64,000 nucleotides of DNA from Schmidtea nova (Eukaryota). Below the pieces are notes generated by a model that did no database searches, had not been told where the DNA came from, and saw only the letters and a program-made list of their open reading frames with translations. The position numbers and the translations under genes are program-made. Shown here piece by piece: positions 24,772 to 64,000 of the stretch (the stretch's first letter is position 1; each line of letters begins with the position of its first letter). The DNA is taken from assembly GCA_044892505.1 (NCBI GenBank), contig CM097883.1, positions 257,238,001-257,302,000 on the forward strand. Reading direction: 5' to 3'.

Positions 24772-24860
24772 GAAGAGTGTTATTATTGCGTTTGTTGGTA
24801 CTGAAAGAGGATCTGTGATGGGAACTCCGTTATTTAAAATAAAGAAGTCGTTGTGTTCTA

Positions 24861-33200: not shown

Positions 33201-36152
33201 TTGACAACCTCTTTGTATCTATGGTAATACACACTTAATAAAGCATCTACCGAAATATCGTGTACCTAATAAAAAATTGTTTTGATATAGTCTTACAATA
33301 ACTAATGTGAAAGTTATTGAATTAAAAAATAGATCAAAAGTGAAACCAAAAGAAAATGATAATAAAACTTATAATTAAGCATAAAAGCATGTTAAATAAT
33401 AATATTTGACTTTTTTAAATATATAATAATAAATAAATAATAAATAATTAGAGTGATTAAGTAAATGCAATATTTAGTTTAATATAAAAATAAATAAAAT
33501 AATAACAAAAAATGATAATAAATTGCTAATAAATAAATAATAATATTAAAGTAAAGTAAATAATTAAAATTAATAAATAATAATATTAAATAATATTAAT
33601 AAATAAATAATTTAATTAATTAAATAAAAAAACCAAACAGTAAAACAAAACACAATGTAAGAATCATGCCAAAAAATTGTCAAATCTTTAAACAAAACAC
33701 TTTAAAAATCTCATTAAAAATGCTCGATAACTCATACGGACCCAGATAACTCATAGCTACCTACTCAATTTAATTACAATTACCATAATTATTAGGCAGA
33801 AATTCAAATCAATATGTTAAATTTATTGAAAACACAATTTTTAATTTTAGCATAGTGTAGCAGTTTTAATAAAAAATATCTGGTTAATCTGAAAAGTCCT
33901 ACGTCATTTGATACAGAAAAGTAAATTTGCTGAAACCAAAGAAATAAAAATGTTAATGTAAATTAAACTTAAGTCATTATAACTTGTGAAATAAATTATG
34001 TAATATTTATTTAATAATGATAGAATAAATGTAAAAATTATCAGAAATATAAAGCAACAGAGAATAGCATTAGGTGACATGATAATTAACTAATAATAAA
34101 AACAATGTTTATTTACTAATATAAAATGTCAATAAAGGAAATATTTAGAACAAAACTCTAAATTAACAATAAGGTTAAAAGTGGTGCGATTTGAGATAAA
34201 TTTCGTAATTTTTGCAAATTAAAATCAATTTTGTCAATCATTTAAACAAAGAAATTAAATAAAATATTTATAACTTAAATCGATAATTATAAAACGAATA
34301 AATAGTAATAATACCAAAATACATCAAAGGAAACAAATTTAAAAGGCTGTAGCACGTACATGGGATTAAACATTTAATAAACTTAAAAAATATTTGTCGG
34401 ATGACAGTTTGTTTTTTAAAAAACCTTTAATAAAAAATAAAGCTTTGTGATTCCCAGTACAAAATCACAGTAGCAAACTGCTTTCGAGCTATTGGCTCTC
34501 AACATTGTTGTGCAATAGCCGCGAATATTGCTCTTCACGTCAGGTAAGTATAAAACAAAGTTGGAACAAATTTATTGAATACTTTTCCTGGTACAGCGGA
34601 TACCACATCACTTGAATACTCAAATATGAAATTATTTCAATTCTAATTTTATTTTTATATATTTTTTAATCTTTTTGCTTCGATTTAGTTTAACTCAAAA
34701 TTTTTTGATTGTTGCAGCGGATTCAATAATTATATGAAATTTTGCATTCGTGAAAATAAGAATGACGATACACGAGAAGACTGTTAAAGTAATGGAAAAA
34801 TGTAAAGGGTATTATAGTAGTCAACGAGAAGCTTCATCCTGTTTCCATTCGTGGTCAAAGTGGAATGAGATAAAGCATGAATGCAATCAAGCAAGGTTTC
34901 AACAAAAATAAGAGAAAAGAAGAATTCAATAAAGAGGATTTTGAATTTTTTAGAAGACATTATACTTCAAGATCATGATTAGAAATAATAATTCCAAACA
35001 CAACCATCGGTTTATGAACGGTCATCTCACGCAGATAGAAACTGTGACTAAATTAAAAACTTCTATTAATTAAATAAAAATATTTATCTTATTTAAAAAA
35101 ATAACTTAAAAAAACATGCCATCGGCATAAACACGTTTCACTCTAGATTCTTGTGAATATTGTTTCTTTTTAAAATTATTTATTACGTAAATAAAAGAAT
35201 ATTGAACGAATTTAAAATTTTGGACTTTTATTTTTCCCCTTTAGGCAAGAAGTGCATTTTTCATTTGTGAATTTAAAAAATAATAAATTTGATAAAGATT
35301 TTACATAATGTTAAGTTTATATAAGTTAAGAAGAAATTAATTTCAATTAAAAAAAATTTTAATCGTTTCTTTTTGGTAAGTATTTTCCTTAATTAACCAG
35401 GTAAGCAAGTAGAAGTGATTCTATGGTGCATTTGTCGTACATATACGTCAGGTGAAAATAAAATTATCATTTGCTATGAAAATTCAAAATATTAGTAAAA
35501 ACTTAAAAATATATTGTGTAAATATAAATATTGCTAATTTTAATTACTCACCCAGAAATACATTTTTGAAAATAAACAACTCGCTTAATAAATTAATAGA
35601 ATTGACCCTTGATTTTTCTTCCTTGTGCTGGGATTATGGGTGGGTTTTAAGTAATTCAAATAAACAATTAATCATACTAGGGATTCCGCGCCCATAACCA
35701 TACATAACATGACTACTACACGCGTATGCCCTTGACTATTCCCTACTAGTCAAGTTGGTACTGCATACGGTGGTGGAAAAATGATGGGCAGGTGAGCTTT
35801 GTCGCCAAAACTACTCCCCATTTATCTTCCCTCGGGTTCTTGCTGCCGATAGAAGGTCTTACGCATTTACATTCTATGGATGTTCGTTTCCTACTGAATT
35901 TTATACTACATATACTTATGATCTATCACACGCTTTTCCCAATGACGCTCTCCCTCGCTGTTCTACAAGCCTACGAAAACTCTCGCTGCTAAGTAACGGT
36001 CGGTGTAGGTTTTACGATGCGATTTTTAGTTCTACGAATTACTTATGTAGTCTTATTTTATTTAGTGAAATCCCACGATGAGAGAAAAAATTTACACAGT
36101 AATACTTTATTAAAATAATAAAGACAGGTTGTTATGTTACATGGAGATTTTC

Positions 36153-36737
36153 CTATTCAAACTCCAGGCTAATCTCCTGGATTAACTCTGCTTCGGTTAA
36201 GGAGTTCAGGTGGTGGATTTGTTCGTCCAGGCGCCTTGCAAATTCTCGGCGACGACGACGCTGTCGCGATCCCATTCGATGTTTTCGAAGCTGTGGGTTT
36301 ATGACCGGTGCTGACGCTATTGTTCTCGGGGGATCACTGGGAAAAATAGGCAAATCTTCCGTTGTAAGAGTGGGTGCCATGATGATTTCCTCTTCCGTCC
36401 CGCAAGCGACATCTTGGTGAGTGCATTGTATCCAGCGCTGAGCCGTGATCGGCCGGATTAGCGCTCGTAATTCGGAGTCGATGTAACTTCTTGTTACTGC
36501 GTTCAGGCAATTTCGGAGTTCTCGCTGGACGGCATCTAATTCCAATTTGGTTGTAGCCAATGCTTCCTGCACTCGCTCGAGTTTTTTCGACTGGTCCTTC
36601 ATCTGTTCGGGCGAGAACCACTTCGCTTTCAATTCATCATTGGCGACCGTGAGTCGCTTGATCTGTCGCTGCTGGTCCCTCAGCTTTCTCTCTTGAATTT
36701 GTCCCATGATTTTCTTCGAATTTTCTGAAGTCGGCAT
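36153..36737 (-). CDS. LTR-encoded 194-aa protein (coiled coil, Arg-rich RQRRRRREF); 3' LTR copy
   Basis: ATG-initiated ORF in a locally less AT-rich block, CAG 5 nt upstream, AATAAA (plus-strand tttatt 36106-36111) about 40 nt after the stop. No recognised family. Confidence 0.6.
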   Translation of the reverse strand: MPTSENSKKIMGQIQERKLRDQQRQIKRLTVANDELKAKWFSPEQMKDQSKKLERVQEALATTKLELDAVQRELRNCLNAVTRSYIDSELRALIRPITAQRWIQCTHQDVACGTEEEIIMAPTLTTEDLPIFPSDPPRTIASAPVINPQLRKHRMGSRQRRRRREFARRLDEQIHHLNSLTEAELIQEISLEFE

Positions 36738-37053
36738 GTTGTCTGAAGATTATAACGATAAATTCACTGGAGGGCCTATCAACAATGTTATTTTATTTAA
36801 ACAACTATTATTATTATTAAACGAGATGTATATTAATGTTTTTAATTGTTGAGTTCTCTACAAAATTATTTAACTATCTAATCATTGAAGACTCAAAAGG
36901 TTTATTGAACTAATTTTATATTAATAAATGAATTTCCTAATGGCTATAACAACTACAATACTAAATCTACATGACAACACTATTAACAAAACGAACATTT
37001 CAGAATTCTTTAAAACATTTATTTAATTTAAAAACAGGCGGCCATTGATTCAG

Positions 37054-37530
37054 CTATTCATCCTCGATCATTTTTCCTCGATACGAAAATACCGAGCGGA
37101 TCTGCAAATTTGTATGGATTCCTGTGTTATTGGACGAGGCCTGCTGGAAACGGATTCTCTCAGCTTCTCGGAGGGGTCGGATGGCTGTATTGAACTTGAA
37201 CCCCAATTCCTTGAAGGTAGAGGCTGGAATGAACCCCCAATAAATGACACATCTCGGGAATCCACCTTTGTCCAACATCATGATGAACCAGGCGGCGTGC
37301 CATGATTCGTATTCCTCGTCTGGGATGATTGGCCAACTAGCGCATCCCCGGTACCATACGTGATGCCGTGGATGGTCCCATACTGTAAATGGACAGGCGG
37401 TTTCGAGCTCTCGGCGCCATGCCCACATCTTTTGATGGATTTGCTGTAAAATCTCGAAAGGAGCCGGCTTTAATGGGCTAACTCGGGCTCGTTCTTGTCG
37501 TTTTTTGATAGTGTATCTATGCTTAGCCAT
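37054..37530 (-). CDS. LTR-encoded 158-aa Trp-rich protein; 3' LTR copy
   Basis: ATG-initiated ORF in a locally less AT-rich block with AT-rich flanks. No recognised family. Confidence 0.55.
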   Translation of the reverse strand: MAKHRYTIKKRQERARVSPLKPAPFEILQQIHQKMWAWRRELETACPFTVWDHPRHHVWYRGCASWPIIPDEEYESWHAAWFIMMLDKGGFPRCVIYWGFIPASTFKELGFKFNTAIRPLREAERIRFQQASSNNTGIHTNLQIRSVFSYRGKMIEDE

Positions 37531-39071
37531 GATTCCAAAACGATGCTGAATTTTATAATAGTTACAATTTACATCAATAATTAATCATAGTAAATGTTAT
37601 CTCTCATCGTGATTCCTTTATTATTTGCCTTCCCCTTAGACCTTAGCTGAAATCAAGAAAAAACTGTTGTTTGTTACAGTATGCATTACTCTCGTATCTA
37701 CTTAGCTTTATCGGTTTATGATCAATTTGCTAGACGAAAAAATGGTGATTTGTCTGCTTGGAGTTTCAAAATATTGGTATTTCAAAACGGAAGCTCTCTC
37801 CCGTCATGTATCCCTAGCTTATTCGAAAAACGCTCTTTTGTACCAAACGCGGTCGACATAATTTTCCTAAGGTTTATTAGACGTTTATTAAACAGCTGCG
37901 CTATGGTGAGGGTGAAAAATTGTGCCTCCTCCCGGTTAACAACTTCTTTCATATCTTTAAGCTTTATCAAAAAATTCTCGTCCCCTCTGTAGCTAAAATG
38001 ATCAGAAAATAATTTTCCGGATTTGTTGGGTGTCCCATGTGCAAGTCTCAACCACTACTGATAAAATTATGCTTTACTATTTATTACTTTACCGTGTGTG
38101 GAGCCCTCGAGCACCACGCCACGGACGGACACCTTGGGAACCTAAAGCTCCCAACGGCGCAAAATTAATATGATCATTATATATTTTAATGTTGAGTCCA
38201 ATCACAATAACGTTTAATTCATATAACAAATTTCAACACATGAATGCATAAACACATAAATAATTAGATCAATAGATAAATGACAAAGCAAATGACACAA
38301 TCATGAATAAAATAATACAGAAACCAAAATACCTAATTCGTCTGGGTTTGCTTCGATCGGTTCGTCTAGAATTCAAAGTCTATTTGATTAGTGAGCTAAA
38401 TTTTACACTCTCAACTGACGTTGTAAGATTAGGTATTAAGTCTGTTTTATCCAAAGTCTGATCAGTATTTATACTGATCAGTCTGATCTAGACTGACCAA
38501 TCGGATTTGGCCGATTTCATGGTGGGTTTTAATTATTGTTTTTGATTCTAATTAATTTTTATTTTTTAGATTGTATTCTTCCTTGGAGGTCCGGGTTTCA
38601 AAAACAATTATTCAATAACAAGTACTTTTATTTGGTTTTAATTATTATTATTTGTATTTTATTTGTTTTTAGATGTCTCCTGGGCCCGTTAATATCTGTA
38701 AATTCATTTATTTTTATTTATAGCTTGTACTTAGTTATTCTATATTTTTACTATATTATTCCTTTCTTTTAATAAATAAATATTCCCCTTTTTACCTTAT
38801 TTTTCTCTTTTTTGTTTTAATTAATCTACTTTTATTTCATTTTTTTCTCTATTTGGCTGGCCCAACATCACTCGGGGACCCCTAAAATTGCGTCCCGCAA
38901 TTAATTATACATTTACACCTATATCATCATACATAAAAATTAAGCAGATAAATGTCAATTTACATATACACAAAGAATCACGTAAGGTGATAGATTTTAT
39001 ACGTAAGCACAAAGTCATATTATTGTTAAATGTAAGTGGATCATACATAAAGTGAATGTAATATATCAGTT

Positions 39072-39644
39072 TTACACAAGCTCTTTGATTTCATGATTGG
39101 TATTGGATTGGATAGGGGTTCTTTCGCTGATTGTTCGTAGTTCGTAGTGGCTTTGGATTCGGTTTAGGTGTTTTCTCATTCGCTTTTGGGTTCTGATGTC
39201 TTGTATTGTTGTTCGATTCAGGATGACATGTTTTTGTTTTAAGATCTTCACTCGGTATGATGTTATGAGGATTGTGATCGCGATAATGGTCACGCTGAGT
39301 GCAAGGATTATTATAATTGCGATGATCCATTTTTCTTGATATTCTATCTCTGCTTGGGCTAAGCTTTTTATGGGTTCTCGACCTTCTTTTAGGGTTTTTC
39401 TGATTGTTTTCAATTTGATTCGATGTTCATATAGGACCTGTTGAAATTTTTCATCGTTTGGGTTGTCTGATGTTATCTGTTGAAGTTGGGTGATTTCTTG
39501 TGTTGCTTCGCTGATTAGTTTATCTAGTTCTTGATAGGTTTTCTCGGGTAGGGCTCGTAGCTCCTTCTCTGTGAGTTGAAGATCTTCTCTTTGTAGGGTG
39601 ATTGTTATTAGGTATAGGAATATCGGTATTCGGAGCTTTTTCAT
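39072..39644 (-). CDS. 190-aa putative type I membrane protein (signal peptide, helical ectodomain, TM, basic tail)
   Basis: MKKLRIPIFLYLITITLQ N-terminus, WIIAIIIILALSVTIIAITILITSY hydrophobic span, heptad-like middle. Confidence 0.7.
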   Translation of the reverse strand: MKKLRIPIFLYLITITLQREDLQLTEKELRALPEKTYQELDKLISEATQEITQLQQITSDNPNDEKFQQVLYEHRIKLKTIRKTLKEGREPIKSLAQAEIEYQEKWIIAIIIILALSVTIIAITILITSYRVKILKQKHVILNRTTIQDIRTQKRMRKHLNRIQSHYELRTISERTPIQSNTNHEIKELV

Positions 39645-39726
39645 ACTGTTTTCTTTACAGGTAGGTCAATACAATTTGATACTACATTTCATACAATTAT
39701 TTACAAAAATATATTTTCCGCTTTAT

Positions 39727-40788
39727 TTACACAATCGTCTCGTTTGGTTCGTAGAAACCTTCGTCCTGAGGTTCTACCTGGTTCGTGGGGAGTGGTATCC
39801 AAACAACCCTGCTCCTCCACATTTCGACTTCATCTCGATACATGTGAGATATCTGGATCTCCTCGTCCAGCAAATATTCTAGGTAATTTGCTTGTTCTGT
39901 TAATGTTTCTATTTGCTTCTCTAATTCGATTACTTTTGTCTTTTGTTCGTCTTCTTTCATCATTTTTGTTACGGCTGCCGTTGTACTTGTTTCTTTGGGT
40001 ATTGCTAGTACTGTTACTCGTTTCTGTTTCAATTCTTCGTTTTCTTTCATCAAATTCGTTAAATTTTCCTCATAACTTTGCTTCGCTTCCTTTAACCTTT
40101 CTCTGGTTCTTTTTAGCTCTATTTTCTTCTGGGTAATCACTCCTTGATAACCATTTATATCTCTCTTCATCTCTTCTTCTTTCTGATTCCATATTCCGGT
40201 GAGCATAGATTTCAGTTGTTCTTGATTAGCTAGTTCTTCTCCCATTCTTTGAACTTGATAGGTTAGTCCTTTAATTTTCTTTGCTTGTTCGCGGATAAAT
40301 TGCTGTCTTTTTGTATTCCATCTTTTATTTAACACTTCCTGGTTGATTTTTTGCTCTAACTCGTCTTTTAGTTCATCGATCTCTTTATATAACTTCCAAT
40401 CATCACTATAAGCTGTCCTTTCTATTATTTCTCTAGCTTTTTCGTAAGATTCTTTCGCTTCTTTCTTCCAGTATCTTGCTTGTTCTGTAATCGAATACAT
40501 CTTGTGTTCAGCTTCCATCTGCTGTCTGTCTCTTTCCTCTCGTCGCTCTTTCATCATTCTCTGGTAATATTCCTTTTGTTGTTGTAGCATTTTGTATACT
40601 TCTTCTATTTTTTCTCGACTTCTTTGACTTGATCTTTCCGCTTCTTTTAATAATTCGGCTTGTCTCTCTATCTCCTCTTGCTTTCCATAATATGCATTGA
40701 CCCATATTTCAATCTGTTCTAGATGATCGCTAATCGCTTCTGTTTGATGCATCGTAATTTCCTGTAAGCATACTTCGATATTTCCCAT
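39727..40788 (-). CDS. 353-aa coiled-coil protein of element B
   Basis: Long ATG-initiated E/K/Q/R-rich ORF with heptad character; no recognised domain. Confidence 0.75.
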   Translation of the reverse strand: MGNIEVCLQEITMHQTEAISDHLEQIEIWVNAYYGKQEEIERQAELLKEAERSSQRSREKIEEVYKMLQQQKEYYQRMMKERREERDRQQMEAEHKMYSITEQARYWKKEAKESYEKAREIIERTAYSDDWKLYKEIDELKDELEQKINQEVLNKRWNTKRQQFIREQAKKIKGLTYQVQRMGEELANQEQLKSMLTGIWNQKEEEMKRDINGYQGVITQKKIELKRTRERLKEAKQSYEENLTNLMKENEELKQKRVTVLAIPKETSTTAAVTKMMKEDEQKTKVIELEKQIETLTEQANYLEYLLDEEIQISHMYRDEVEMWRSRVVWIPLPTNQVEPQDEGFYEPNETIV

Positions 40789-40909
40789 TGCTATAATTTC
40801 AAAAAAAAAATTTTTTAATCGGTTTATATATCAGTTATTTTTTGTTTATATAATAATTTTTGGGTATTTAACTGTACATATTATTTACACGATCACTTCT
40901 CTTGTTACG

Positions 40910-42286: not shown

Positions 42287-42377
42287 TCTACAATGATATA
42301 TACACTTGATTTGTTATCTATTTTTTGATTTTTCTTGTTTTTGTTTTTACATATTTACAATTTTTCGCTTTATTTAT

Positions 42378-42734
42378 CTACGGCTCGTTTGTTGAATCTG
42401 GTTCTGGGTCATTTTCTGATCTGTTTATTGCCCAATTTGTCCATCCATCCTCTGCTTCTTCTGTCTCTCCCATTGTTAAACGGTCTATCTCTATTGCTTG
42501 TCTCTGATTTATGTCGCTCATCACTTGATTCTCTCTGGTAAGTTGCGTTATCAATCTCTGTTGCTCCTCGATTCTGTGGAGTTGTTCAAAACTATTATTA
42601 TAACTTTCGGATAACAAATTCTGTTTCTCAATTAACTGATTTTGTAGTGAGTTGATTGTTCGTATTAACATGTCACACTGGGCTTTCCATCGCATAGCCA
42701 TAGTAGTTTCTGCTATTTCTTCCTGTTCGTTCAT
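42378..42734 (-). CDS. 118-aa coiled-coil protein with acidic tail
   Basis: ATG-initiated, heptad pattern, same strand and spacing as neighbouring accessory ORFs. Confidence 0.6.
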   Translation of the reverse strand: MNEQEEIAETTMAMRWKAQCDMLIRTINSLQNQLIEKQNLLSESYNNSFEQLHRIEEQQRLITQLTRENQVMSDINQRQAIEIDRLTMGETEEAEDGWTNWAINRSENDPEPDSTNEP

Positions 42735-54800: not shown

Positions 54801-57800
54801 TGGATGGTTTGGTGATTATCCCATATACCAATTTTATATAGCCGTCTTTCATCGTGATCCCATAATACATGTTCGTTGTATTTCATGATTATGTCATCTT
54901 CCCATTCTTCTTCTGGTTCTCTTTGTAATAGTGTCTCGTTGATGACATTTACTAATTCTTTTATGGTACAATCTGCTACCACTTCAATTTCTTTGGTATC
55001 CTCATTAGGTAACTCTACTGCAATTTTCAGATCTGTTATTTTCCCTTGTCTGAACATTGCTTTTCCCATTTTTGCAATTACTTTTCCGTATGAGATCTGT
55101 GACCATCTCGTGTGACTTGTGTCACGTATGCATTCGATACATCGTTTCAACTTTTCGTATTCGCTTCTCATTAACTCCTTTCTATGTTTTTTGATTTGTG
55201 GGATGATTTGTTCTATCATGGAATTTAGATTTCCTCGTAAGATTCGTCCTTTCTCATATTCTAACCGTGGTTTTATCTTCCTCTCGAAACACATATTTGC
55301 TTCTTTTGCTACTTCTTGTAGGTTCTCTTCTCTCTTATCATCGCATATCGATAATGTTGTCACCTCTCCTGGCCATATGCCTGTTTCTATCAAATGCGTC
55401 CTTTTCTTCACTAGTCCATTCTGTGAATAGAGGAATTTGTTTTTATATGAACTCCCTAATCTGTCTTCCACCCATTGATAAATATCTTCCGTGAGTGGAG
55501 TTTTGATCCAAATCCTTGGCAAACATGTTTTTATCTCTATTAGGATTATATATTCATGGAGTGGTTCTTTTAATAATTTTCCTACGTATTGGCTTAGTGT
55601 TTCTACTTCCCGGCCTGGTAACCACTCTTTATAGTTCATTTGTAATATTGCTCTCATGAATTTTCTATAGTGTTTCTTGTCAATGAATTCCTCATTATAT
55701 ATTACTTCTAGCGTATTATCTAATAATTTCTGGATCTCGTCTTCTTTTACTTGAATAGTTTCTGGTGTCTTTACTACTTCTATCTTTTTGTCTTCAATTT
55801 CCGGTTCGTCTAGCATGTCCCCTGCTAGACTACTGACGTCACTATCCTCTTCATCGTCTGAAAAATTCTTTGCCTGGCCTCTCAACATGTTAATGTGTTT
55901 TATCTGGTTAATTTCACTTGGTGTATTTTCCGTTGGTCTTGTTTCACTTTTAATAGCTTTTTGTGTTGATTCACTCTTGTCGTCTACTACTTCGACCTTT
56001 CTCAATTTTCGTTCTAACTCGTCTATTTCTCCCAACCGTCTTCGTATCATTTTCCCTTTAAATATTCGACTGATTCGTGTTTCGTGACGCACTGGCGATG
56101 GAATTCCTTCTGGTTCTATTTCCTTGATTACCATCACATTTCTTTTTGTCTCTACTACTCCCATGTTTTCCCATGTATCCGTTAGTTTCAATTTTACTTC
56201 TGGTGCACCTTCTATTTTTAGGAATGCTTCTCTGGGCAGTTTCGTTACTCCTGGAGCCATTTCATTCACTTTATTGAACAATATTTCTACTTCTTCCTTT
56301 ATGTTATATTGGAATCGAAACACGTGCTTGTTTGGCAAAATTACCATCATTCCTCTTTTCCCGAGTTTCCTTTTCTCTTCTTGGTTCCCTTCTTTTTCTA
56401 CTTCCTTTTCTGTTTCTTTTTCTGCTTCTTCATCTTCTTGTATTATCTCTTTTCGGCCTTCGTTGTTGGTTGGATTTGGGTTTGTTGGATTTATTTCTGG
56501 TACAGTCTCTTTCTCGTGGGTATTTGTTTGATTGGTTGCTCTCATCATATTAATTCTTAGAGGTTGTCGTTCTCTTTCTTGCTGTTTTTGTTCCTCTTCT
56601 CTTTGTATTCTTGCCCATTCCTGAGCATGTCGTGCTTGACTTTCCCGATTCAATCGTTCGTTTTCGCTTTCTATTTTTCTCATCATATTGATTTGTTGTT
56701 GACCTGTTTGCGGATTTCCTCTGGTTGTATTGTTTATCAGCTCCGTCAATCTTTGGACCTCTTGCATTAAATGTATCTCTTTAGTGGTATTTTTATTTTG
56801 GTTATTATTATTACTATTTGGTTGGTTTCCGTATTCCGGTTGGTTTCCATTATTTGGCTGATTTCCATAATTCTGTCGGTTTCCACCAGTTGGTTGGTTG
56901 CCATAGTTTTGTCGGTTTCCGGTATTCTGCCAGTTTCCTCGTTGATTGCTTCTTTGTCCGCAATTTCTTGATAGGTGTCCAGGCCGTCCACAATTAAAAC
57001 AGGTTATTGTGTAACATCTGCTCTCTGAATGCCCTTTTACTCCACATTTTCCACAATTCAAGTTCTGATAACATTCTTGTTGCCAATGTCCCAATTTCCC
57101 ACATGTTTTGCATTGTTTCGTTGGTCCTTGGGGGTTGTAATTGTTTTGATTTCCGTAATTTGATACTTTATTCCCTTCATTCCTTCGTTGCGGTGGTGGT
57201 CGGTTTAATTGTTGTGAATTTGGAATGTGGTTATTCAGGTTCACTTCTTGTTCGTTTTGTGCTGTATCCATAGCTAAATAGATTCTACCATCATTTCCTA
57301 TCATGTGTAGTTCAAATCTATTAGCTGTTTCTAGTGCTTGGTCGATGGTTTTACAACCTTGACATCCAACTTGCGCTCTTATGTCGGGTCTTCTTAATCC
57401 TCCCACAAAGATAGCTGCCATTAACTCCTCATTTATTGGGCTGTCTTGATTAAAGATCAACTTTGCTAACTTTTTCAATTCGCTTGCATATACCGCATTC
57501 GATTCATTTATCTTTTGTTTCCTCATTGAGAATTCCGTGAATGCCTCATTCAATACTTTATTTATTCCAAAGGTTTGTTGGAAAAAGTCCTTTATCGCTG
57601 ACCAACTTGTAGGTGGATTAGTTCCATTCTTTGCTTCCAAATATAGATCTAATGCGCTATCTTTCAAATATAGCTGAATTCTGCTTACAGTTGTTTCTGG
57701 TTTCCACTTGCATACTTCCACGAATATGCCAAATTCCTTTAAGAAAGTTTCTAATTTACTCGCATCTCCATTAAACGGTTCTCCGGAAAATTTGTCTTTT

Positions 57801-58249
57801 ATCTCTTCTCTTGGTTCGCTCATTTCAATTCCGCTGTCTGTAGTTATTTTACTTTCGTTTCCTCTTGTTTCTAGTTCACTGTTAGGTTCGTCACTTGAAT
57901 TTCGGTCGATCTCAGTTTCCTTTGCTGATTCGTTATCTGATGCTTTACTATCGTTATCGGTATCGTCACTTTCTGTTTCTTGTTCTACTTCGTCTTCTAT
58001 TTCTTCTATATAATCGTTGTTGGTTTTGTCGACTTCTATTTCACTTATTGGGTTTCTCTCGGGTTCTGCTTGATTTTCTTTGTTGCTTGAACTGTTGCTT
58101 GTTACTGATAATTTATCGTTTTCGATAATCGACTTTTGTATTATTATCTGCCTTGCTTTACTTCCTTTTGGGCCTTTCTGATTATTATTCTTGGTAGCTT
58201 TATTCTTTTCTGCTGGTTTTATTATGACACTCTTTTCTCCTTTTCTCAA
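42860..58249 (-). CDS. gag-pol: 5129-aa polyprotein: Gag (3 CCHC), 2 UBL-like, AT-hook, Bcl-2-like, env-like glycoprotein, PR, dUTPase-like linker, RT, RNase H, IN, ankyrin repeats, FN3-like membrane protein
   Basis: CCHC at 56960-57113; DTG at 50393-50401; YIDD at 49175-49186; TDAS at 48731-48742; IN GGH..CLTC, AMDVIG, TDQGTNF, TNGQTERFN and GPY; ankyrin TPLMVAA-type repeats; hydrophobic spans near 52810, 51060, 44780 and 43075. Annotated start is TTG; first ATG near residue 143. Confidence 0.96.
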   Translation of the reverse strand: MRKGEKSVIIKPAEKNKATKNNNQKGPKGSKARQIIIQKSIIENDKLSVTSNSSSNKENQAEPERNPISEIEVDKTNNDYIEEIEDEVEQETESDDTDNDSKASDNESAKETEIDRNSSDEPNSELETRGNESKITTDSGIEMSEPREEIKDKFSGEPFNGDASKLETFLKEFGIFVEVCKWKPETTVSRIQLYLKDSALDLYLEAKNGTNPPTSWSAIKDFFQQTFGINKVLNEAFTEFSMRKQKINESNAVYASELKKLAKLIFNQDSPINEELMAAIFVGGLRRPDIRAQVGCQGCKTIDQALETANRFELHMIGNDGRIYLAMDTAQNEQEVNLNNHIPNSQQLNRPPPQRRNEGNKVSNYGNQNNYNPQGPTKQCKTCGKLGHWQQECYQNLNCGKCGVKGHSESRCYTITCFNCGRPGHLSRNCGQRSNQRGNWQNTGNRQNYGNQPTGGNRQNYGNQPNNGNQPEYGNQPNSNNNNQNKNTTKEIHLMQEVQRLTELINNTTRGNPQTGQQQINMMRKIESENERLNRESQARHAQEWARIQREEEQKQQERERQPLRINMMRATNQTNTHEKETVPEINPTNPNPTNNEGRKEIIQEDEEAEKETEKEVEKEGNQEEKRKLGKRGMMVILPNKHVFRFQYNIKEEVEILFNKVNEMAPGVTKLPREAFLKIEGAPEVKLKLTDTWENMGVVETKRNVMVIKEIEPEGIPSPVRHETRISRIFKGKMIRRRLGEIDELERKLRKVEVVDDKSESTQKAIKSETRPTENTPSEINQIKHINMLRGQAKNFSDDEEDSDVSSLAGDMLDEPEIEDKKIEVVKTPETIQVKEDEIQKLLDNTLEVIYNEEFIDKKHYRKFMRAILQMNYKEWLPGREVETLSQYVGKLLKEPLHEYIILIEIKTCLPRIWIKTPLTEDIYQWVEDRLGSSYKNKFLYSQNGLVKKRTHLIETGIWPGEVTTLSICDDKREENLQEVAKEANMCFERKIKPRLEYEKGRILRGNLNSMIEQIIPQIKKHRKELMRSEYEKLKRCIECIRDTSHTRWSQISYGKVIAKMGKAMFRQGKITDLKIAVELPNEDTKEIEVVADCTIKELVNVINETLLQREPEEEWEDDIIMKYNEHVLWDHDERRLYKIGIWDNHQTIHVIRMDDTPRETAKDEKRERERQKEVVHKLQQIVDIYRNWRIWPEWEDVLEELNLNRRLRTPVEKQWNERGKCWEPKAGEYEEEYGIGIEDDHKPETGRVCMVTRKAMPADLDGPETTTMWLEREKQKTEEFVEILKTNAHGKRKVVKGLADFFVVNGEDITCLRKVAKAIAEYKRVNEWCPEQLDHVIKKWRNQEFSQESPQKVHLRIVYPNQEKEEFWVGIAEKVRDIKKKLRYEPPFHLQHQGRSLDNSLEIGITPAQLDIANTLTVAAIAGQPLKLKEEKKPKGSMSTPSPMKSVRTPGTSSEQARTTPRETRERTPPEPYDVDEIFTDSDDMLEELIELTKEKDDNIFERIQELPTAIPVTNTEDEVEQEIIIEEVNEIAEEETRRANVENVQFTQEMERWLEERANEPRDVTEETGRETRLVETGTTMDKRPRGRPKMDPANVVIKSREEKRRDQWDLCLKKLNKIAVTKEKETTQTYQGEEWISKMLMEILAIIDPELKKWWRINEISERAKSLHSAIAPILPELIKEKTRSNHLDWQGTTMLIKKLTEGAETDNKYLIAMAYTIYNLLTLSRGRLKPTALERHIKNTAKIIEKEIEPYIISKGGWETFTKTNQKKNQAKNMKKKFEEILGELEKEKSGTGNGKSSLNLSSIIMMMLIWMISTDGATAFEVFDCDQMALGEKYSLRGTEQCKDATPTELKTLKKRQLYHVYQEAELIRTMVRECKVYKTRFAFYCGHRHYSAIVMPGTERESVMLQGEDCEKLFKHGEVETRDRVKIRGKTGVILQQTYYVAGAITGGEGYCQGATYPIFGVAATNLVVIDTYTVELKTYEAFFDPTTGEMKTLPMCKIESNTCQTGMSTLTYQIRGKECQLQLLKEAEFDEIQGKTFQEEEEDEAARGKILQDTVRGEKKIETRTQEKQIKMRNTPTVLITSDADIGMRFVKGKTALKCGVAMLETNYPGIFVSKQEVPSAKRKVHTNDVKLHLYMNNKMDFLFHRGQASLQKVYYDLINNDCILNREILKTKLAVAITNPDSAMPLLPLREGHFGRVVGEVMYVYICKKTNAKVATMTKLQPGQCTNELEIEYKGKVRYVQPVTRIINPISFEPNPFNCSNAYGPLYQKPDGNWVMFPSRTEVPAPREFELMQLSKGRKFKDVDVSNMGFYSAKDLEAARQNILFPARREAVLSSIVTITGGTNYQGGPNYELLLSPAHFKKATENMMKAMWGRFLIFGQMMAGILGVILIIQIIRVIITQMLACFDIYKREKKVNWKLVVGFLPFLAKTMVLHGHSKDIHRIKRLLKILAKMKGTDEEVGRKFKKIMNNEQARQQLKKERKGLWERMKGYRTQDDSSDDDDDDNEGGQVFKNQVPQYVEKNPAEMWKCYAPPPTMYQEPTPGMRQNTMQMMPMTNIYPMIPEDYRTRRCRSVDPQGDSHTIAVMSSNTGPVLTTTIEINGREIEAMIDTGANISAIDIKWIPQEQRRDIERTNVHVIACSKEVVEVAGRWWVKIKHQNTEIETYVAVIPALSVPCIIGTDLMPALFKEIVIDLGTMRLKDRTGQICAIEAKVTSSKQIIVPARREKICFVKIDPTIEGDMIFEPSKRFEKRKSLPMARGLVSANDNGEIPITVVNFDEEDKIIYENERLGKLTPMMDIEIPIKEGVKEEEPTWNIDSQLLNEDQKKQLERLLIEYKDIFAAFDLDLGTCDVTLHTIPLTDETPIALRPYKLAEAQKSVAEAEVQKMLDAEVIEPSCSPWQFPVVMVKKKDGTQRFCIDYRRLNAVTKRDTYPLPDINEMLLTLQGAAYFTSLDLKSGYWQIKMKEEDKEKTAFTIGRDLYQFRKMPFGLTNAPASFQRCMNFVTHGIKQCMVYIDDLLIYSSTFEQHIQDIRDVFVRLRQWKLKLKPSKCDWAKEKVTFLGHIVSAKGKEPDPRNIDKVKECPVPKTITQIQEFLGLCGYYRKFIKDYAGIAKPIQELVKKDVSFIWGSEQQTAFETLRDKLITAPILVHPDFKKPFLLATDASGYAAGAVLGQYDDEGKERVIGYYSRTFKKHEKNYSVTEREALAIILAIKHFKYLLWGHVICITTDHQPLVWLGQHKETSSRLMRWAMQLQEYSPDIKFKSGKANANADCMSRLTFPELTDPEVQRICIMIAEDLDFSELKKDQQEDKELRPIIEFLSSRNMDVFKDNAELKEHMRKYQHRYTIEKGWLLIRDGEKRLMCLPGNRRKEIITQYHDGKLGGHMSDKKTLNRMRQKYYWPTMDEDVKEWIKNCLTCATRKDSGKKWKNPLKPMPIPAEPMTTIAMDVIGPLPESLNGNQYILVITDYLTKFPEAFAMPDQKAKTVARILVEEICCRYGTPKQILTDQGTNFMSEILDEVTNYFRIAKLRTSPYHPQTNGQTERFNGTLIRMLSNYVSKHQTDWDEYIKLCLMAYRMSIHAATKLSPFQLMYGRECNMPIDLEYQPPLSQYMEEDDYVTKFKERMQEIWKTAELNIKFYQESYKDLHDQKKNVKTNDLKPGDWVMIETPEIIPGTVKKLQRPGKGPYEVIYKKENNVKVKLVNRPLIRPIYVNTCRCKKVPKTITTAPEERIITRSQTARMNMLRATNESTEAENNQREKRNKEIVLKAREIMGKWHVRDDILRDIQSIISDYARGLPTKPVISELLEKIPEILSLEDIGGQPALHNAIKWGEVERVKEFLKIAKETNQHLGFWNSEQETPLMVAAIYKSDKAIIDLLINADFNWTERDRENKTVLNHAIWSSNQIMLKQIIEKATWEIDELIKGDIIKEAIKIGNCKTIRKLIKWKRSENDTWVLNINEVYSEGQNTLLQFLLKFVCDQKALLTLLDRRNIIISKNKEECKFESEKEALFRKIREWCAKSLTKTITYKDISNFQDKYKTVEEEYDKLIDILNHPEKCKQFLCQKERESKRKVTPLFSAEVPYQERLDAIQDKAKELLPEFENSKHTLEILGSIVEKVHAYAEGTYNENDMMIIKREMPVTFLLTKNGVLPIHRALRAGKNRRVVEIARLMQDCGSDMNMKDKKGDTLMIFAARANTKTRVLQELYEAGAGLMGRTNKDSSILDVALLAHNWEVINFIKTITNQEEIEYLTRTVKKASVHSMMHNAELTEAILNWMNPNTNEPAFRINECMEQGQNLYIKCALIINKWPKIIDIFMRRKDLRFTNNPKETERTDKWKELMKTYLNNWIKAKKEILDCKLTDKEIPKQAETQEYEASILTTITYEKMIETINVEDDMFNDQRGGDNTGNDDDSTRENPEDHKLSDKEDSEEKGRDTEKNDKNNEFGKQRNNNYKNKNEVKRTGYKQTINPFFKPELLLLTVIMTLISPTQGMICEEKATIQIGNAKGIERVCWSKKDKISGQNSPMDCRISEYEQEIIEIDDLELDTWYRMCTVRKPKDPRSHKTIACANYLTPKVTITVQQSSKGDYVVRKCGRTETQGTKNKKHQTIDRRTTPTIQITIDRPEVRVTTNETERVTYQAELLCLALILTMLKRLEEGIDIDTMAVTEMNDTQNTNPKCWARSNEEIGVSEIKTSRKRKTNKVTKISEVKADRTYELCLLEKERHKKGTTICKTFQPGETMKFIRRGRRNKRTKRRTTIMLELTGIEPDVKGVCWKKQEKKTNQNTPPQCRTNRGTTTIQIEGLESNQTYEICLIRKSDKITVNELECKIYKTPTRTRIGKTTRKSRRQRNKGKTRYTTTFKPNGQQKNQEIQIKTEKNTTATLILWRIDNKTLEICWAVVQEQKERQPRYCENVKGKEEMSIKNLKFNREYEICAVEKTDILGNQQEKCETYYTPVNSTSKGKVRKLEFKELSQTTKQMDAEQIVIDPYARWTPEEVIKEVKRKQQEREQLLNKLKGQYGPMINQSEITKMDVNKQVRELIGLGILAATIPVITVLLIIWIYDVFNKKPITHWPDIKIMNYSIELPEEVHKEFQRRTKGKEFWRQIEDEERYEGKTVMVI

Positions 58250-58798
58250 CGGGATTACTTTTGTATACTCAATTTTCTTGTCTTATCGTGTTCCGATTCT
58301 TTTCTTCCTTAGTTGATTGGTTTGGTTTGATTGATTTATCTAAAATACAAATGTCACTTCAACGATACTCTATTGTTATCGTTGCGCTTTTATTCCCTTT
58401 TTACGGGACTTCTCATTACTGGGTTTCTATTATTTTTCCCCATTCCCAGATTCCCCTTTATTTAAGTCTATTTAAATTATCTATATACTAGTCACAATTA
58501 TCTATTTAGTCATAACAATTATCTATCGGTTATTAAAATACATCAATTATTTTTCCCGCGGTCTCCCAATTTATTTGTCGTTCGAACGCTCTAATTCCCT
58601 GAGTCATTTGACTCGATTATTATTTTTTCATCTCTTTATCTTTCTCTCTGCTAGCCTCTAATTATTAATTCTGCCGGTCTTTCCGGTCAGCTCCTATTTC
58701 TCGATTCTACTTGCATGCATTATTTTAGGTCGCATAATCAGCTTTACTCGCATTTCTCTATTATCGGTGCGCACTATTCTCATTATCGTCGACGATCA

Positions 58799-59012
58799 CA
58801 ACTCTGGGCCTATATTCCCTCTGTTGTTATTTCTTATCACTTGCAACCCTGGGCCTATATTCCCTCCGTTGCTACTCAAACGATTGTAACCCTGGGCTTA
58901 TATTCCCTCCGTTACTATCTTCCTTTAATTTTAAATAATTGCAACCCTGGGCCTATATTCCCTCCGTTGCTACTCAACAATTGTAACCCTGGGCCTATAT
59001 TCCCTCCGTTAC
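58799..59012. repeat. Five copies of an (aacc)ctgggcctatattccctccgtt motif in the element B leader
   Basis: Copies start near 58801, 58843, 58887, 58940 and 58982, with variable spacers. Confidence 0.9.
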
Positions 59013-59057
59013 TATATATCCGGATATCCCTATTGGCTCCTTTGGCCTCTAATTAAT

Positions 59058-59224
59058 ATCAATTATCTCAAATGGCTCTTATGGCCTCAAATTCATATCT
59101 CAATTATCTTAAATGGCTCTATTGGCCTTAAATTCATATCTCAATTATCTCAAATGGCTCTATTGGCCTTAAATTCATATCTCAATTATCTCAAATGGCT
59201 CTATTGGCCTTAAATCATATCTCT
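59058..59224. repeat. Four copies of a 41-bp tandem unit in the element B leader
   Basis: Unit aattatctcaaatggctctattggccttaaattcatatctc. Confidence 0.9.
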
Positions 59225-59267
59225 CAATAACGCCTAGCTAGGTCATTCAATATGGCTCTTTGGCCTC

Positions 59268-59422
59268 AACCCTTTGTTTCAAGGGACAAACCGCTGATAA
59301 CCCTTTGTTTCAAGGGACAACCTCTAATAACCCTTTGTTTCAAGGGACAAACCGCTGATAACCCTTTGTTTCAAGGGACAAATTCTAATAACCCTTTGTT
59401 TCAAGGGACAAACCGCTGATAA
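59268..59422. repeat. Five copies of an alternating 31/30-bp unit, each containing a small hairpin
   Basis: aaccctttgtttcaagggacaaaccgctgat alternates with variants ending aacctctaat or aaattctaat; ccctt-N6-aaggg stem. Confidence 0.9.
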
Positions 59423-59897
59423 CTTTTCCTTAACCGGTTAATCGTAATTCTTAACTTCGCTAGCGACTACAATTTCTCAGCTGAGTTCTCTCAATTTCAT
59501 GCGAGCTGATTATGCACCTCTTATTTTTCTCTATAATTCCTCGATTCTTTGTTTTATTACTAATTCTTTCGCTGATCAGTCATAATTCAATTTTTATTAT
59601 TTTCTCTGCGCGCATCTTACCTCCTCAGGGTTTTCCCTATTTCTCTCCCCAACCAAAATATACAAAAAGATCGCGTTGGTCTACTAATGCGGGATGTGGT
59701 GATCAATCACATCACAAAAGCTTTCCAACATTTGCGATTGGCCCCTTTCTATATACCCCGAGTGGGTTGATCAACTGGTACCTCCCAATGGGTGCTTAAC
59801 GGACTACTTGACAGTAGCTCAAAAATTAATTAACATTGTTGATTGCTCCCCTGACTTTGTCATTCGATACAATATATTAACACACTCTAAATATTTA

Positions 59898-60662: not shown

Positions 60663-60680
60663 ATCCCGGCTGAGCCCCCA
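60663..60680 (-). promoter_or_regulatory. Primer-binding site of element B (tRNA-Pro type)
   Basis: TGGGGGCTCAGCCGGGAT, 6 nt inside the 5' LTR boundary; identical to the element A PBS and spacer. Confidence 0.88.
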
Positions 60681-61213
60681 AATTTATGCTGGGATTATGG
60701 GTGGGTTTTAAGTAATTCAAATAAACAATTAATCATACTAGGGATTCCGCGCCCATAACCATACATAACATGACTACTACACGCGTATGCCCTTGACTAT
60801 TCCCTACTAGTCAAGTTGGTACTGCATACGGTGGTGGAAAAATGATGGGCAGGTGAGCTTTGTCGCCAAAACTACTCCCCATTTATCTTCCCTCGGGTTC
60901 TTGCTGCCGATAGAAGGTCTTACGCATTTACATTCTATGGATGTTCGTTTCCTACTGAATTTTATACTACATATACTTATGATCTATCACACGCTTTTCC
61001 CAATGACGCTCTCCCTCGCTGTTCTACAAGCCTACGAAAACTCTCGCTGCTAAGTAACGGTCGGTGTAGGTTTTACGATGCGATTTTTAGTTCTACGAAT
61101 TACTTATGTAGTCTTATTTTATTTAGTGAAATCCCACGATGAGAGAAAAAATTTACACAGTAATACTTTATTAAAATAATAAAGACAGGTTGTTATGTTA
61201 CATGGAGATTTTC

Positions 61214-61798
61214 CTATTCAAACTCCAGGCTAATCTCCTGGATTAACTCTGCTTCGGTTAAGGAGTTCAGGTGGTGGATTTGTTCGTCCAGGCGCCTTGC
61301 AAATTCTCGGCGACGACGACGCTGTCGCGATCCCATTCGATGTTTTCGAAGCTGTGGGTTTATGACCGGTGCTGACGCTATTGTTCTCGGGGGATCACTG
61401 GGAAAAATAGGCAAATCTTCCGTTGTAAGAGTGGGTGCCATGATGATTTCCTCTTCCGTCCCGCAAGCGACATCTTGGTGAGTGCATTGTATCCAGCGCT
61501 GAGCCGTGATCGGCCGGATTAGCGCTCGTAATTCGGAGTCGATGTAACTTCTTGTTACTGCGTTCAGGCAATTTCGGAGTTCTCGCTGGACGGCATCTAA
61601 TTCCAATTTGGTTGTAGCCAATGCTTCCTGCACTCGCTCGAGTTTTTTCGACTGGTCCTTCATCTGTTCGGGCGAGAACCACTTCGCTTTCAATTCATCA
61701 TTGGCGACCGTGAGTCGCTTGATCTGTCGCTGCTGGTCCCTCAGCTTTCTCTCTTGAATTTGTCCCATGATTTTCTTCGAATTTTCTGAAGTCGGCAT
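61214..61798 (-). CDS. LTR-encoded 194-aa protein; 5' LTR copy
   Basis: Identical translation to 36153-36737. Confidence 0.6.
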   Translation of the reverse strand: MPTSENSKKIMGQIQERKLRDQQRQIKRLTVANDELKAKWFSPEQMKDQSKKLERVQEALATTKLELDAVQRELRNCLNAVTRSYIDSELRALIRPITAQRWIQCTHQDVACGTEEEIIMAPTLTTEDLPIFPSDPPRTIASAPVINPQLRKHRMGSRQRRRRREFARRLDEQIHHLNSLTEAELIQEISLEFE

Positions 61799-62114
61799 GT
61801 TGTCTGAAGATTATAACGATAAATTCACTGGAGGGCCTATCAACAATGTTATTTTATTTAAACAACTATTATTATTATTAAACGAGATGTATATTAATGT
61901 TTTTAATTGTTGAGTTCTCTACAAAATTATTTAACTATCTAATCATTGAAGACTCAAAAGGTTTATTGAACTAATTTTATATTAATAAATGAATTTCCTA
62001 ATGGCTATAACAACTACAATACTAAATCTACATGACAACACTATTAACAAAACGAACATTTCAGAATTCTTTAAAACATTTATTTAATTTAAAAACAGGC
62101 GGCCATTGATTCAG

Positions 62115-62591
62115 CTATTCATCCTCGATCATTTTTCCTCGATACGAAAATACCGAGCGGATCTGCAAATTTGTATGGATTCCTGTGTTATTGGACGAGG
62201 CCTGCTGGAAACGGATTCTCTCAGCTTCTCGGAGGGGTCGGATGGCTGTATTGAACTTGAACCCCAATTCCTTGAAGGTAGAGGCTGGAATGAACCCCCA
62301 ATAAATGACACATCTCGGGAATCCACCTTTGTCCAACATCATGATGAACCAGGCGGCGTGCCATGATTCGTATTCCTCGTCTGGGATGATTGGCCAACTA
62401 GCGCATCCCCGGTACCATACGTGATGCCGTGGATGGTCCCATACTGTAAATGGACAGGCGGTTTCGAGCTCTCGGCGCCATGCCCACATCTTTTGATGGA
62501 TTTGCTGTAAAATCTCGAAAGGAGCCGGCTTTAATGGGCTAACTCGGGCTCGTTCTTGTCGTTTTTTGATAGTGTATCTATGCTTAGCCAT
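62115..62591 (-). CDS. LTR-encoded 158-aa protein; 5' LTR copy
   Basis: Identical translation to 37054-37530. Confidence 0.55.
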   Translation of the reverse strand: MAKHRYTIKKRQERARVSPLKPAPFEILQQIHQKMWAWRRELETACPFTVWDHPRHHVWYRGCASWPIIPDEEYESWHAAWFIMMLDKGGFPRCVIYWGFIPASTFKELGFKFNTAIRPLREAERIRFQQASSNNTGIHTNLQIRSVFSYRGKMIEDE

Positions 62592-63518
62592 GATTCCAAA
62601 ACGATGCTGAATTTTATAATAGTTACAATTTACATCAATAATTAATCATAGTAAATGTTATCTCTCATCGTGATTCCTTTATTATTTGCCTTCCCCTTAG
62701 ACCTTAGCTGAAATCAAGAAAAAACTGTTGTTTGTTACAGTATGCATTACTCTCGTATCTACTTAGCTTTATCGGTTTATGATCAATTTGCTAGACGAAA
62801 AAATGGTGATTTGTCTGCTTGGAGTTTCAAAATATTGGTATTTCAAAACGGAAGCTCTCTCCCGTCATGTATCCCTAGCTTATTCGAAAAACGCTCTTTT
62901 GTACCAAACGCGGTCGACATAATTTTCCTAAGGTTTATTAGACGTTTATTAAACAGCTGCGCTATGGTGAGGGTGAAAAATTGTGCCTCCTCCCGGTTAA
63001 CAACTTCTTTCATATCTTTAAGCTTTATCAAAAAATTCTCGTCCCCTCTGTAGCTAAAATGATCAGAAAATAATTTTCCGGATTTGTTGGGTGTCCCATG
63101 TGCAAGTCTCAACCACTACTGATAAAATTATGCTTTACTATTTATTACTTTACCGTGTGTGGAGCCCTCGAGCACCACGCCACGGACGGACACCTTGGGA
63201 ACCTAAAGCTCCCAACGGCGCAAAATTAATATGATCATTATATATTTTAATGTTGAGTCCAATCACAATAACGTTTAATTCATATAACAAATTTCAACAC
63301 ATGAATGCATAAACACATAAATAATTAGATCAATAGATAAATGACAAAGCAAATGACACAATCATGAATAAAATAATACAGAAACCAAAATACCTAATTC
63401 GTCTGGGTTTGCTTCGATCGGTTCGTCTAGAATTCAAAGTCTATTTGATTAGTGAGCTAAATTTTACACTCTCAACTGACGTTGTAAGATTAGGTATTAA
63501 GTCTGTTTTATCCAAAGT

Positions 63519-63542
63519 CTGATCAGTATTTATACTGATCAG
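63519..63542 (-). promoter_or_regulatory. Candidate TATA box embedded in a palindrome in U3 (second copy at 38458-38481)
   Basis: Minus strand CTGATCAGTATAAATACTGATCAG: TATAAATA within 11-bp inverted arms, ~395 nt from the LTR 5' end. Confidence 0.4.
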
Positions 63543-64000
63543 TCTGATCTAGACTGACCAATCGGATTTGGCCGATTTCATGGTGGGTTTTAATTATTGT
63601 TTTTGATTCTAATTAATTTTTATTTTTTAGATTGTATTCTTCCTTGGAGGTCCGGGTTTCAAAAACAATTATTCAATAACAAGTACTTTTATTTGGTTTT
63701 AATTATTATTATTTGTATTTTATTTGTTTTTAGATGTCTCCTGGGCCCGTTAATATCTGTAAATTCATTTATTTTTATTTATAGCTTGTACTTAGTTATT
63801 CTATATTTTTACTATATTATTCCTTTCTTTTAATAAATAAATATTCCCCTTTTTACCTTATTTTTCTCTTTTTTGTTTTAATTAATCTACTTTTATTTCA
63901 TTTTTTTCTCTATTTGGCTGGCCCAACACTTGGCTTGTTTGTGTCTCGTTTGACATTGAGTAAAAATTAAGTCTTCTAGTCTCGAAAGTCCATCTGCAGT

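Follow-up and report, generated by a model that had tools for sequence, protein, structure and literature searches.

The 64,000-nucleotide stretch of the Schmidtea nova genome analyzed here (GCA_044892505.1, contig CM097883.1, positions 257,238,001 to 257,302,000; hereafter the window) carries a giant, retrovirus-like long terminal repeat (LTR) element that was copied recently. It occupies 35626..63928 on the minus strand (28,303 nt, with an internal region of 21,819 nt). Our reading, to which we assign a probability of roughly 60%, is that this element is young, exists in many copies, and belongs to the Burro-like Ty3/gypsy group; its polyprotein is predicted to be threaded through the endoplasmic reticulum (ER) and cut into Gag, enzymes, and two surface proteins, and its selected cargo likely keeps the cell alive and dampens TRAF signalling. 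The LTRs, the target-site duplication (TSD), a primer-binding site (PBS) for tRNA-Pro, the intact catalytic motifs, the recent copying, the domain homologies, and the purifying selection are established directly. The positions of all features are given in Table 1.

The original prediction of an intact 28-kb element with an LTR-PBS-polyprotein-LTR structure, a TSD, and no stops was borne out in every part. The PBS begins six bases past the 5' LTR, and one open reading frame (ORF) lies upstream of the polyprotein (ORF1), four lie downstream of it, and two lie in each LTR. No classical polypurine tract was found before the 3' LTR at 38868-38891; this interval holds a GC-rich 24-nt motif that is kept in three of the element families recognized in this genome (families 1-3) and has a variant form in family 6. 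The window gave no Rfam family match and no tRNA gene.

Table 1 Features of the window element (coordinates in the window) and copies of the related family 6 (genome loci).
Feature	Position	Strand	Remarks
5' LTR	60687..63928	-	3,242 nt, TG..CA
3' LTR	35626..38867	-	3,242 nt, 0 mismatches vs 5' LTR
TSD	35622-35625 and 63929-63932		4 bp, flanking both LTRs
PBS	60663..60680	-	18 nt, complement of host tRNA-Pro(TGG) 3' end + CCA
LTR ORF, 158 aa	62115..62591; second copy 37054-37530	-	no assigned identity; 29% to family 2
LTR ORF, 194 aa	61214..61798; second copy 36153-36737	-	coiled-coil-like; dN/dS 0.34
RING ORF, 153 aa	59898..60359	-	C-terminal C3HC4 RING (Pfam), IAP-like type, no BIR
Leader tandem-repeat arrays (3, short)	58782..59450	.	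units ~43-55, 41, 30-31 nt
AUG-less in-frame extension	57824..58282	-	153 open codons, upstream of ORF1; dN/dS 0.37
ORF1	42860-57823	-	4,987 aa from ATG, no stops
Gag capsid-like region, three CCHC knuckles	56960..57823	-	aa 1-288
Helical + ubiquitin-like units (3)	53954..56356	-	aa 690-835, 855-1015, 1130-1290
Bcl-2-like domain	52934..53356	-	aa ~1490-1630; BH2-like GGW kept, BH1 degenerate
Internal signal peptide, predicted gB-type (class III) fusogen ectodomain, transmembrane segment(s)	50924..52843	-	
Aspartic protease, spacer, reverse transcriptase, RNase H, integrase	47054..50461	-	spacer where dUTPase-like domain reported
Ankyrin-repeat clusters (2)	45224..46756	-	
Second internal signal peptide, 3-4 cysteine-containing FN3-like domains (likely), transmembrane helix, tail	42860..44824	-	
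Accessory ORF, 118 aa	42378..42734	-	coiled-coil-like
TRAF ORF, 458 aa	40910..42286	-	full-length, intronless; RING, zinc fingers, coiled coil, MATH (Pfam)
Accessory ORF, 353 aa	39727..40788	-	coiled-coil-like
Accessory ORF, 190 aa	39072..39644	-	with transmembrane segment
Five short spacers, 623 nt total	within 38868..42859	-	7 UGUAHAUA motifs; YAG 1-3 nt 5' of each accessory ATG
Family 6 copies	G000:C1:253261344-253289118 (L200-L203); also L209-L211, L213-L215, L217-L220, L221-L223		

The element is multi-copy. A 1.5-kb reverse transcriptase (RT) query returned 1,326 candidates in the genome, and 40/40 of those scored were at least 98% identical. Twelve copies were fetched from these top 40 matches, a sample biased to young, intact copies; 11 were collinear with the window element over its whole length (~97-99.97% identity in the coding region) and one was interrupted. 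Among the 11, both ends were readable in 10, and all 10 had LTR pairs 99.9-100% identical and a 4-bp TSD, one of which lies in a TA repeat. Each accessory ORF was full and open in 11-12/12 copies. With the Bcl-2 region as query, 81 of the 150 matches scored (the best ones, leaning young) were at least 95% identical by hand count, and 33 of the 81 belonged to uninterrupted frames of 5,060 codons or more. The collinear copies sit on three chromosomes, families 2 (~80% amino acid identity) and 3 (~60-70%) have the same gene order as the window element, and independent runs cover 30/30 bins of 56000-64000 (the three runs used were contigs of unspecified kind, with low-depth joints only). Together with the purifying selection described below, these observations refute the explanation that the locus is an assembly chimera or a set of neutral host fragments acquired in passing, for which we see next to no chance.

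Compared with family 2, the ratio of nonsynonymous to synonymous substitution rates (dN/dS) ranged from 0.008 (RT) to 0.37 (the AUG-less extension) in 18/19 modules, one LTR ORF being saturated; the values were 0.06 for the Bcl-2-like domain, 0.07 for Env, 0.08 for RING, 0.09 for ankyrin, 0.14 for TRAF, and 0.22 for the FN3 region, and all are approximate, as dS is near saturation for several modules. Judged from these sequence comparisons, the cargo modules are held by purifying selection. In family 2, the cassette of signal peptide, FN3, and transmembrane segment was seen twice in tandem at one locus (L081:5642-9124), giving frames near 5,685 codons. Compact relatives (L192-L194, L196-L198, L205-L207) have frames of 3,073-3,401 codons that combine one or two ubiquitin-like units and a Bcl-2-like domain with a glycoprotein B (gB)-type env and pol. 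They also encode a second, short membrane protein and, downstream, a single ORF of 469-898 aa with no assigned identity.

The polyprotein runs in the order Gag, ubiquitin-like repeats, Bcl-2-like domain, gB-type fusogen, protease (PR), RT, RNase H (RH), integrase (IN), ankyrin repeats, and FN3-like membrane protein, within a frame of 5,140 codons from stop to stop. Pfam matched zf-CCHC, Monjiviricetes_fusion (PF24664, E=1.5e-67), RVP, RVT_1, RNase H, integrase, and ankyrin, and the catalytic motifs are intact (PR DTG, RT YIDD, IN HHCC/DDE). The spacer between PR and RT is conserved and of a size that fits a dUTPase-like domain; it gave no Pfam match. Upstream of the ATG, the 153-codon extension has counterparts of 121-197 open codons in families 2 and 3, and neither a clear splice acceptor nor a start was found in a search for both.

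The ubiquitin-like, Bcl-2-like, TRAF, and ankyrin assignments were supported by profiles or Pfam. For the ubiquitin-like repeats, a profile of 15 units (three from the window and 12 from other families) matched ubiquitin, ISG15, and NEDD8 with a best E=1.2e-6; the first-listed unit of the window alone gave no Pfam ubiquitin match, no family was matched by the helical domain preceding each unit, and aa 490-580 is a further candidate unit. The Bcl-2-like region had no Pfam match and reached only E=1.9 in a single-sequence search; despite this, a profile of seven sequences from six families reached Bcl-xL at E=3e-5, and its 60 best matches were all Bcl-2 family members. The TRAF and ankyrin modules were confirmed by Pfam (MATH and ankyrin), and the TRAF protein matches known structures at both ends (RING-zinc-finger structures of TRAF6/5/2 at the N-terminus and MATH structures of TRAF5/3/2 at the C-terminus). 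The IAP-type RING held only in part: a C3HC4 RING is present, and a Pfam scan of 8 element proteins found no BIR domain.

Two surface proteins are indicated. The fusogen-like gene that had been called is well supported, as the Pfam match above is joined by a 138-sequence Env profile for which 33/34 matches in the Protein Data Bank were herpesvirus gB (best E=0.0014); a class III fusogen fold is predicted from these profile matches and from the classification of flatworm relatives (PMC13524379, as far as its text was available). At the C-terminus of ORF1, a signal-like segment is followed by four cysteine-containing repeats and a transmembrane (TM) helix. This region had no usable sequence match (none in Pfam, E=1.9 with a single sequence, no match with a profile), and an Atlas match score of 0.75 is a lead only. 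Its predicted structure had a mean predicted local distance difference test (pLDDT) score of 44.6 overall and ~55-75 in individual domains; three beta-sandwiches aligned to FN3 chains over ~70 residues (root-mean-square deviation 2.4-3 A) at Z 7-7.9, although values under 8 can reflect a common arrangement. FN3 made up nearly all of the 50 best chains in the fold search. Of the anticipated FN3-like modules, what stands is therefore a likely FN3-type membrane protein, modelled rather than matched in sequence. The pattern of signal peptide, ectodomain, and TM segment, both after the Bcl-2-like domain and after IN and ankyrin, is kept in distant relatives, namely P0001-P0004 and families 4, 5, and 7.

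From this anatomy we can outline how the element would work. The parts established above provide for reverse transcription primed by tRNA-Pro and for integration that leaves a 4-bp TSD. The polyprotein would cross the ER membrane at its two internal signal peptides and two anchors, such that Gag, the ubiquitin-like units, the Bcl-2-like domain, PR, RT, IN, and ankyrin face the cytosol and the two glycoproteins face outside, one being the gB-type fusogen and the other probably an FN3 adhesion protein. Cutting could be shared by host signal peptidase and the element's own protease, and Gag, Env, and Pol would be produced 1:1 with no frameshift. Movement between cells may then proceed via particles or cell-cell fusion, while the Bcl-2-like, TRAF, RING, ankyrin, and ubiquitin-like cargo would act on cell death or TRAF signalling.

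For a budding retrovirus, producing Gag, Env, and Pol 1:1 from a single frame would be unusual. It is possible, on balance doubtful, that no free infectious particles are made, and that the fusogen and FN3 protein act by contact or fusion at the surface of the producing cell or the element is mainly intracellular. The single-frame layout found here fits that explanation, as does the lack of reported particles in the papers covered. However, Env is under strong purifying selection (dN/dS 0.07), and the predicted model of the Bcl-2-like and Env regions has a well-folded ectodomain (mean pLDDT 82).

Expression of the downstream ORFs may depend on the spacers that separate them. YAG lies 0-5 nt 5' of the ATG in 6/7 accessory ORFs vs 95/608 background ATGs, and in 5/6, 5/7, and 6/10 ORFs of families 2, 3, and 6, respectively. 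The gaps between the downstream ORFs (82-125 nt) fall inside the 300-nt threshold used for flatworm operons, and spliced-leader trans-splicing has been described in Schmidtea mediterranea (both PMC12582326, in the text available). Splicing to the AG just ahead of each ATG would release every one of these ORFs on its own mRNA, with either a cis leader or the flatworm spliced leader. The spacers are also rich in UGUAHAUA, with 7 motifs per 623 nt vs a shuffle mean of 0.44 (0/300 shuffles reached 7), an enrichment first spotted by eye and therefore post hoc. Families 2, 3, and 6 have 7/596 nt, 6/506 nt, and 6/1311 nt. The density in the spacers, ~11 per kb, is roughly ten times that of 27 post-stop windows from presumed host genes (1 per kb; 4 in 4,050 nt); only 1 motif occurs across the 15-kb ORF1, and the Pumilio-type motif is absent from the LTR and leader of the window element. 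In the available text of PMC5855632, UGUANAUA is a PUF-binding consensus and a planarian Pumilio is required for stem cells. A PUF protein might tune the downstream ORFs, but the motif could alternatively belong to a signal for splicing or for the 3' end. Internal polyadenylation is unsupported, because AATAAA is not enriched in the spacers.

With regard to the origin of the cargo, the MATH domains of four element TRAFs formed one clade (95/93) among presumed host MATH domains, in a tree of 22 rows from which 11/30 presumed host loci and 5/10 database proteins were dropped as too short and 5 exact duplicates were removed. The simplest reading of this tree is a single old capture from the host. 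A cluster of presumed host TRAF/MATH genes at G000:C2:405-455 Mb stands apart from the TRAFs dispersed with the elements. Of the 150 best MATH matches, ~90 by a rough count come from a single dispersed family whose frame has 476 codons; a family with a 399-codon frame likewise accounts for most of the 150 top BIR matches.

Following the BIR matches led to family 6, an LTR element of up to ~28 kb with at least 150 copies, LTRs of 3.1-5.4 kb, and LTR pairs 99.9-100% identical. Its tRNA-Pro PBS and LTR start are common to families 1-3; outside these shared termini and the PBS, its LTR had no blastn match to the LTRs of families 1-3. The Burro-type Gag, Env, RT, and IN were absent between the LTRs in 5/5 copies with an intact 5' part, and the sixth copy fetched was rearranged. 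What family 6 does carry is a RING, a PR-ankyrin remnant, a TRAF, a BIR-RING IAP, a coiled-coil protein, and two membrane ORFs. All 136/136 matches scored with a first query lay in frames of at most 1,091 codons, although that query spans the deletion junction and is blind to an autonomous partner; with a second query, for which 150 of 4,088 candidates were scored, all 150/150 lay in frames of at most 1,064 codons. The ratio of nonsynonymous to synonymous differences (pN/pS) in the cargo was 0.05-0.34 in 33/33 comparisons over 8 genes; all comparisons of a gene use a common reference, so they are not independent of each other. On these sequence data, family 6 has apparently kept its cargo under purifying selection while losing its own copying machinery, and it may still have an unsampled autonomous partner. 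This leads to a speculative and, in our judgement, unlikely extension of our reading, a helper-satellite system in which an autonomous element would supply Gag, RT, integrase, and the two-glycoprotein entry, and a giant satellite that has shed all of these would spread with survival cargo only (TRAF, IAP, ankyrin, and RING), as a spliced operon gated by Pumilio in the stem cells of a regenerating animal. If this were true, cargo-bearing copies would be selected through the survival of the cell that expresses them.

Poxvirus Bcl-2-like proteins work as protein-binding scaffolds. An alternative that we hold as tentative, and lean against, is that the cargo blocks innate-immune or ubiquitin signalling rather than apoptosis, with the Bcl-2 fold as such a scaffold and the TRAF, ankyrin, and ubiquitin-like units as decoys. 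The degenerate BH1, a RING without BIR, and the ubiquitin/ISG15/NEDD8-like repeats would be consistent with this, and a planarian nidovirus likewise bears host-like ankyrin repeats (PMC6211748, from the text available). By contrast, the sister family 6 has a BIR-RING IAP, and the BH2-like GGW is invariant in 7/7 aligned Bcl-2-like sequences.

Our preferred reading of a Burro-like element with cell-protecting cargo needs to be weighed against several observations. Besides the sampling of young copies and the approximate dN/dS values given above, the BH1 NWGR motif of Bcl-xL is not kept in the Bcl-2-like domain, and BH3 binding is doubtful because of its absence. The upstream RING ORF lacks the BIR that would make it an IAP. 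In the TRAF, the RING His is replaced by Cys, and the MATH domain shows changes relative to TRAF3/5; the fork that nests the element TRAFs has a support of just 84/87, and the TRAFs that stand for the host in the tree are presumed host loci that may themselves lie in retroelement context. The Env ectodomain lacks a furin-type site and carries a single N-glycosylation sequon, and the FN3 call, which we regard as likely, comes from a low-confidence model. The original prediction of a complex endogenous retrovirus-like agent that manipulates survival and immunity stands for its enveloped, provirus-like anatomy with apoptosis and ubiquitin modules, and these modules are under purifying selection; cargo function, transcripts, and particles are what we infer from the sequence.

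The rest of the window contains several other features. A broken relative of the same group lies at 612-9066 (minus strand), with a Gag ORF (57% identity) that has extra knuckles, a 56-nt tandem array at 4561-6094, and an LTR-end match at 8852-9066; the 30 kb on its left side yielded no pol. Positions 20452-25765 hold another, small gypsy element, whose terminal repeats are near-identical and lie 5.19 kb from each other; an ORF in its region (24861-25643) matches a nuclear-receptor-type C4 zinc finger (E=1.9e-7). Two intronless rhodopsin-family GPCR-like paralogues (18461-19369 and 29360-30283) are 72-78% identical in DNA, and several related hairpin-like inverted repeats with 55-73-nt arms at 12976-16474 are possibly the ends of a non-autonomous DNA element. 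Elsewhere in the genome, at G000:C1:459.6 Mb (L229), tRNA-Pro(TGG) genes form a tandem array with a 308-nt period, and 1,110 pattern matches occur genome-wide.

Our results test a point left open by the 2019 review of Burro-like elements by Arkhipova & Yushenova (PMC6431247), in that the cargo is under purifying selection both in autonomous families and in a family apparently unable to copy itself. The idea of a cell-protecting transposon thereby becomes testable gene by gene in planarian-type stem cells. The counts of TRAF, IAP, and Bcl-2 genes in such genomes are inflated by element-borne copies, for TRAF and IAP because most of the best MATH matches, like most of the best BIR matches, belong to a single family. 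The TRAF expansion reported for planarians (PMC6109357, in the part available) may need to be checked for such copies, although a separate presumed host cluster exists too.

Comparison with known systems, for which the cited papers were available in part, places the window element among the Burro-like giants, which have internal regions of up to 25 kb and long LTRs (PMC6431247). In Schmidtea mediterranea, ORF1 of Burro/GYPSM1 has 4,873 aa with Gag, CCHC, MATH, ubiquitin/SUMO-like, BCL2-like, Env between gag and pol, dUTPase-like, BIR, and ankyrin modules, and the elements were proposed to be integrated proviruses interfering with apoptosis and ubiquitination (PMC6431247). BURRO1 is PIWI-silenced and gut-enriched once derepressed (PMC8532177), and Burro is mentioned once, in passing, in the text available from PMC11410931 and PMC13238120. 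The window element shares with Burro1-4/GYPSM1 and with Burro-like elements broadly the giant size, one polyprotein of ~4,900-5,100 aa starting with Gag and CCHC, the order of ubiquitin-like, BCL2-like, and Env between gag and pol, the PR-RT-RH-IN and ankyrin modules, and a MATH/TRAF module in ORF1 or in an accessory ORF. Burro1 has a MATH domain inside ORF1 and a BIR, whereas the window element has MATH only in the separate full-length TRAF ORF, a BIR-less RING ORF, and no BIR; its env is gB-type, while that of Burro was called gypsy-Env-like (PMC6431247). The window element is therefore Burro-like in the broad sense but, lacking BIR and with MATH outside ORF1, falls outside Burro1-4 in the strict sense.

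Flatworm GAG-ENV-POL errantiviruses (Smed_errantivirus_1-6) have been classed as gB-type by Chary & Hayashi (PMC13524379). The window element agrees with them in a gB env placed between gag and pol with signal peptide and TM flanks, in the Ty3/gypsy PR-RT-RH-IN order, and in its multiple intact copies. In a gap-free comparison with Smed_errantivirus_5 made by eye, 42 of the initial 102 aligned residues are identical. Env of family 5 resembles Smed_errantivirus_1, also by eye. In the main text of that paper, as far as it was available, the words 'Burro', 'accessory', and 'ankyrin' are absent and the cargo, the FN3 protein, and non-autonomous families are untreated. The planarian nidovirus PSCNV likewise has a single giant polyprotein with host-like ankyrin and fibronectin modules, but it is an unrelated RNA virus with FN type II rather than type III and no reverse transcription (PMC6211748). 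The literature searched, where most subscription papers lie outside the coverage, yielded no description of the FN3 protein, of selection on the cargo, of the family without its own copying genes, or of the motifs in the spacers; the FN3 region, the LTR ORFs, and non-autonomous families may be covered already in Grohme 2018 or Jurka 2007.

The closest likeness is to the 'Dugesia tigrina' Burro-like element examined in 2019, which has a 5,140-aa ORF1 without MATH, Gag with CCHC, env between gag and pol, and a TRAF in an accessory ORF (PMC6431247). We give slightly better than even odds that the window element belongs to that very family, which is compatible with our reading and lowers its novelty only; here, the 5,140-codon frame is found in many copies and TRAF is likewise accessory, and the matching length points to this family or a near one. 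Compared by description only, the published element has two CCHC knuckles and an upstream TRAF ORF vs three knuckles and a downstream TRAF here, and the available text (PMC6431247) makes no mention for it of the FN3-like membrane protein, LTR ORFs, or RING ORF. Judged against Burro, the window element brings no new layout, as essentially the same architecture and hypothesis are published for Burro/GYPSM1 and the second planarian element (PMC6431247). Enveloped gypsy elements of giant size that bear apoptosis and ubiquitin modules were already published in 2007-2019, and the window element is a fresh example of this known Burro-like kind, possibly of an already described family.

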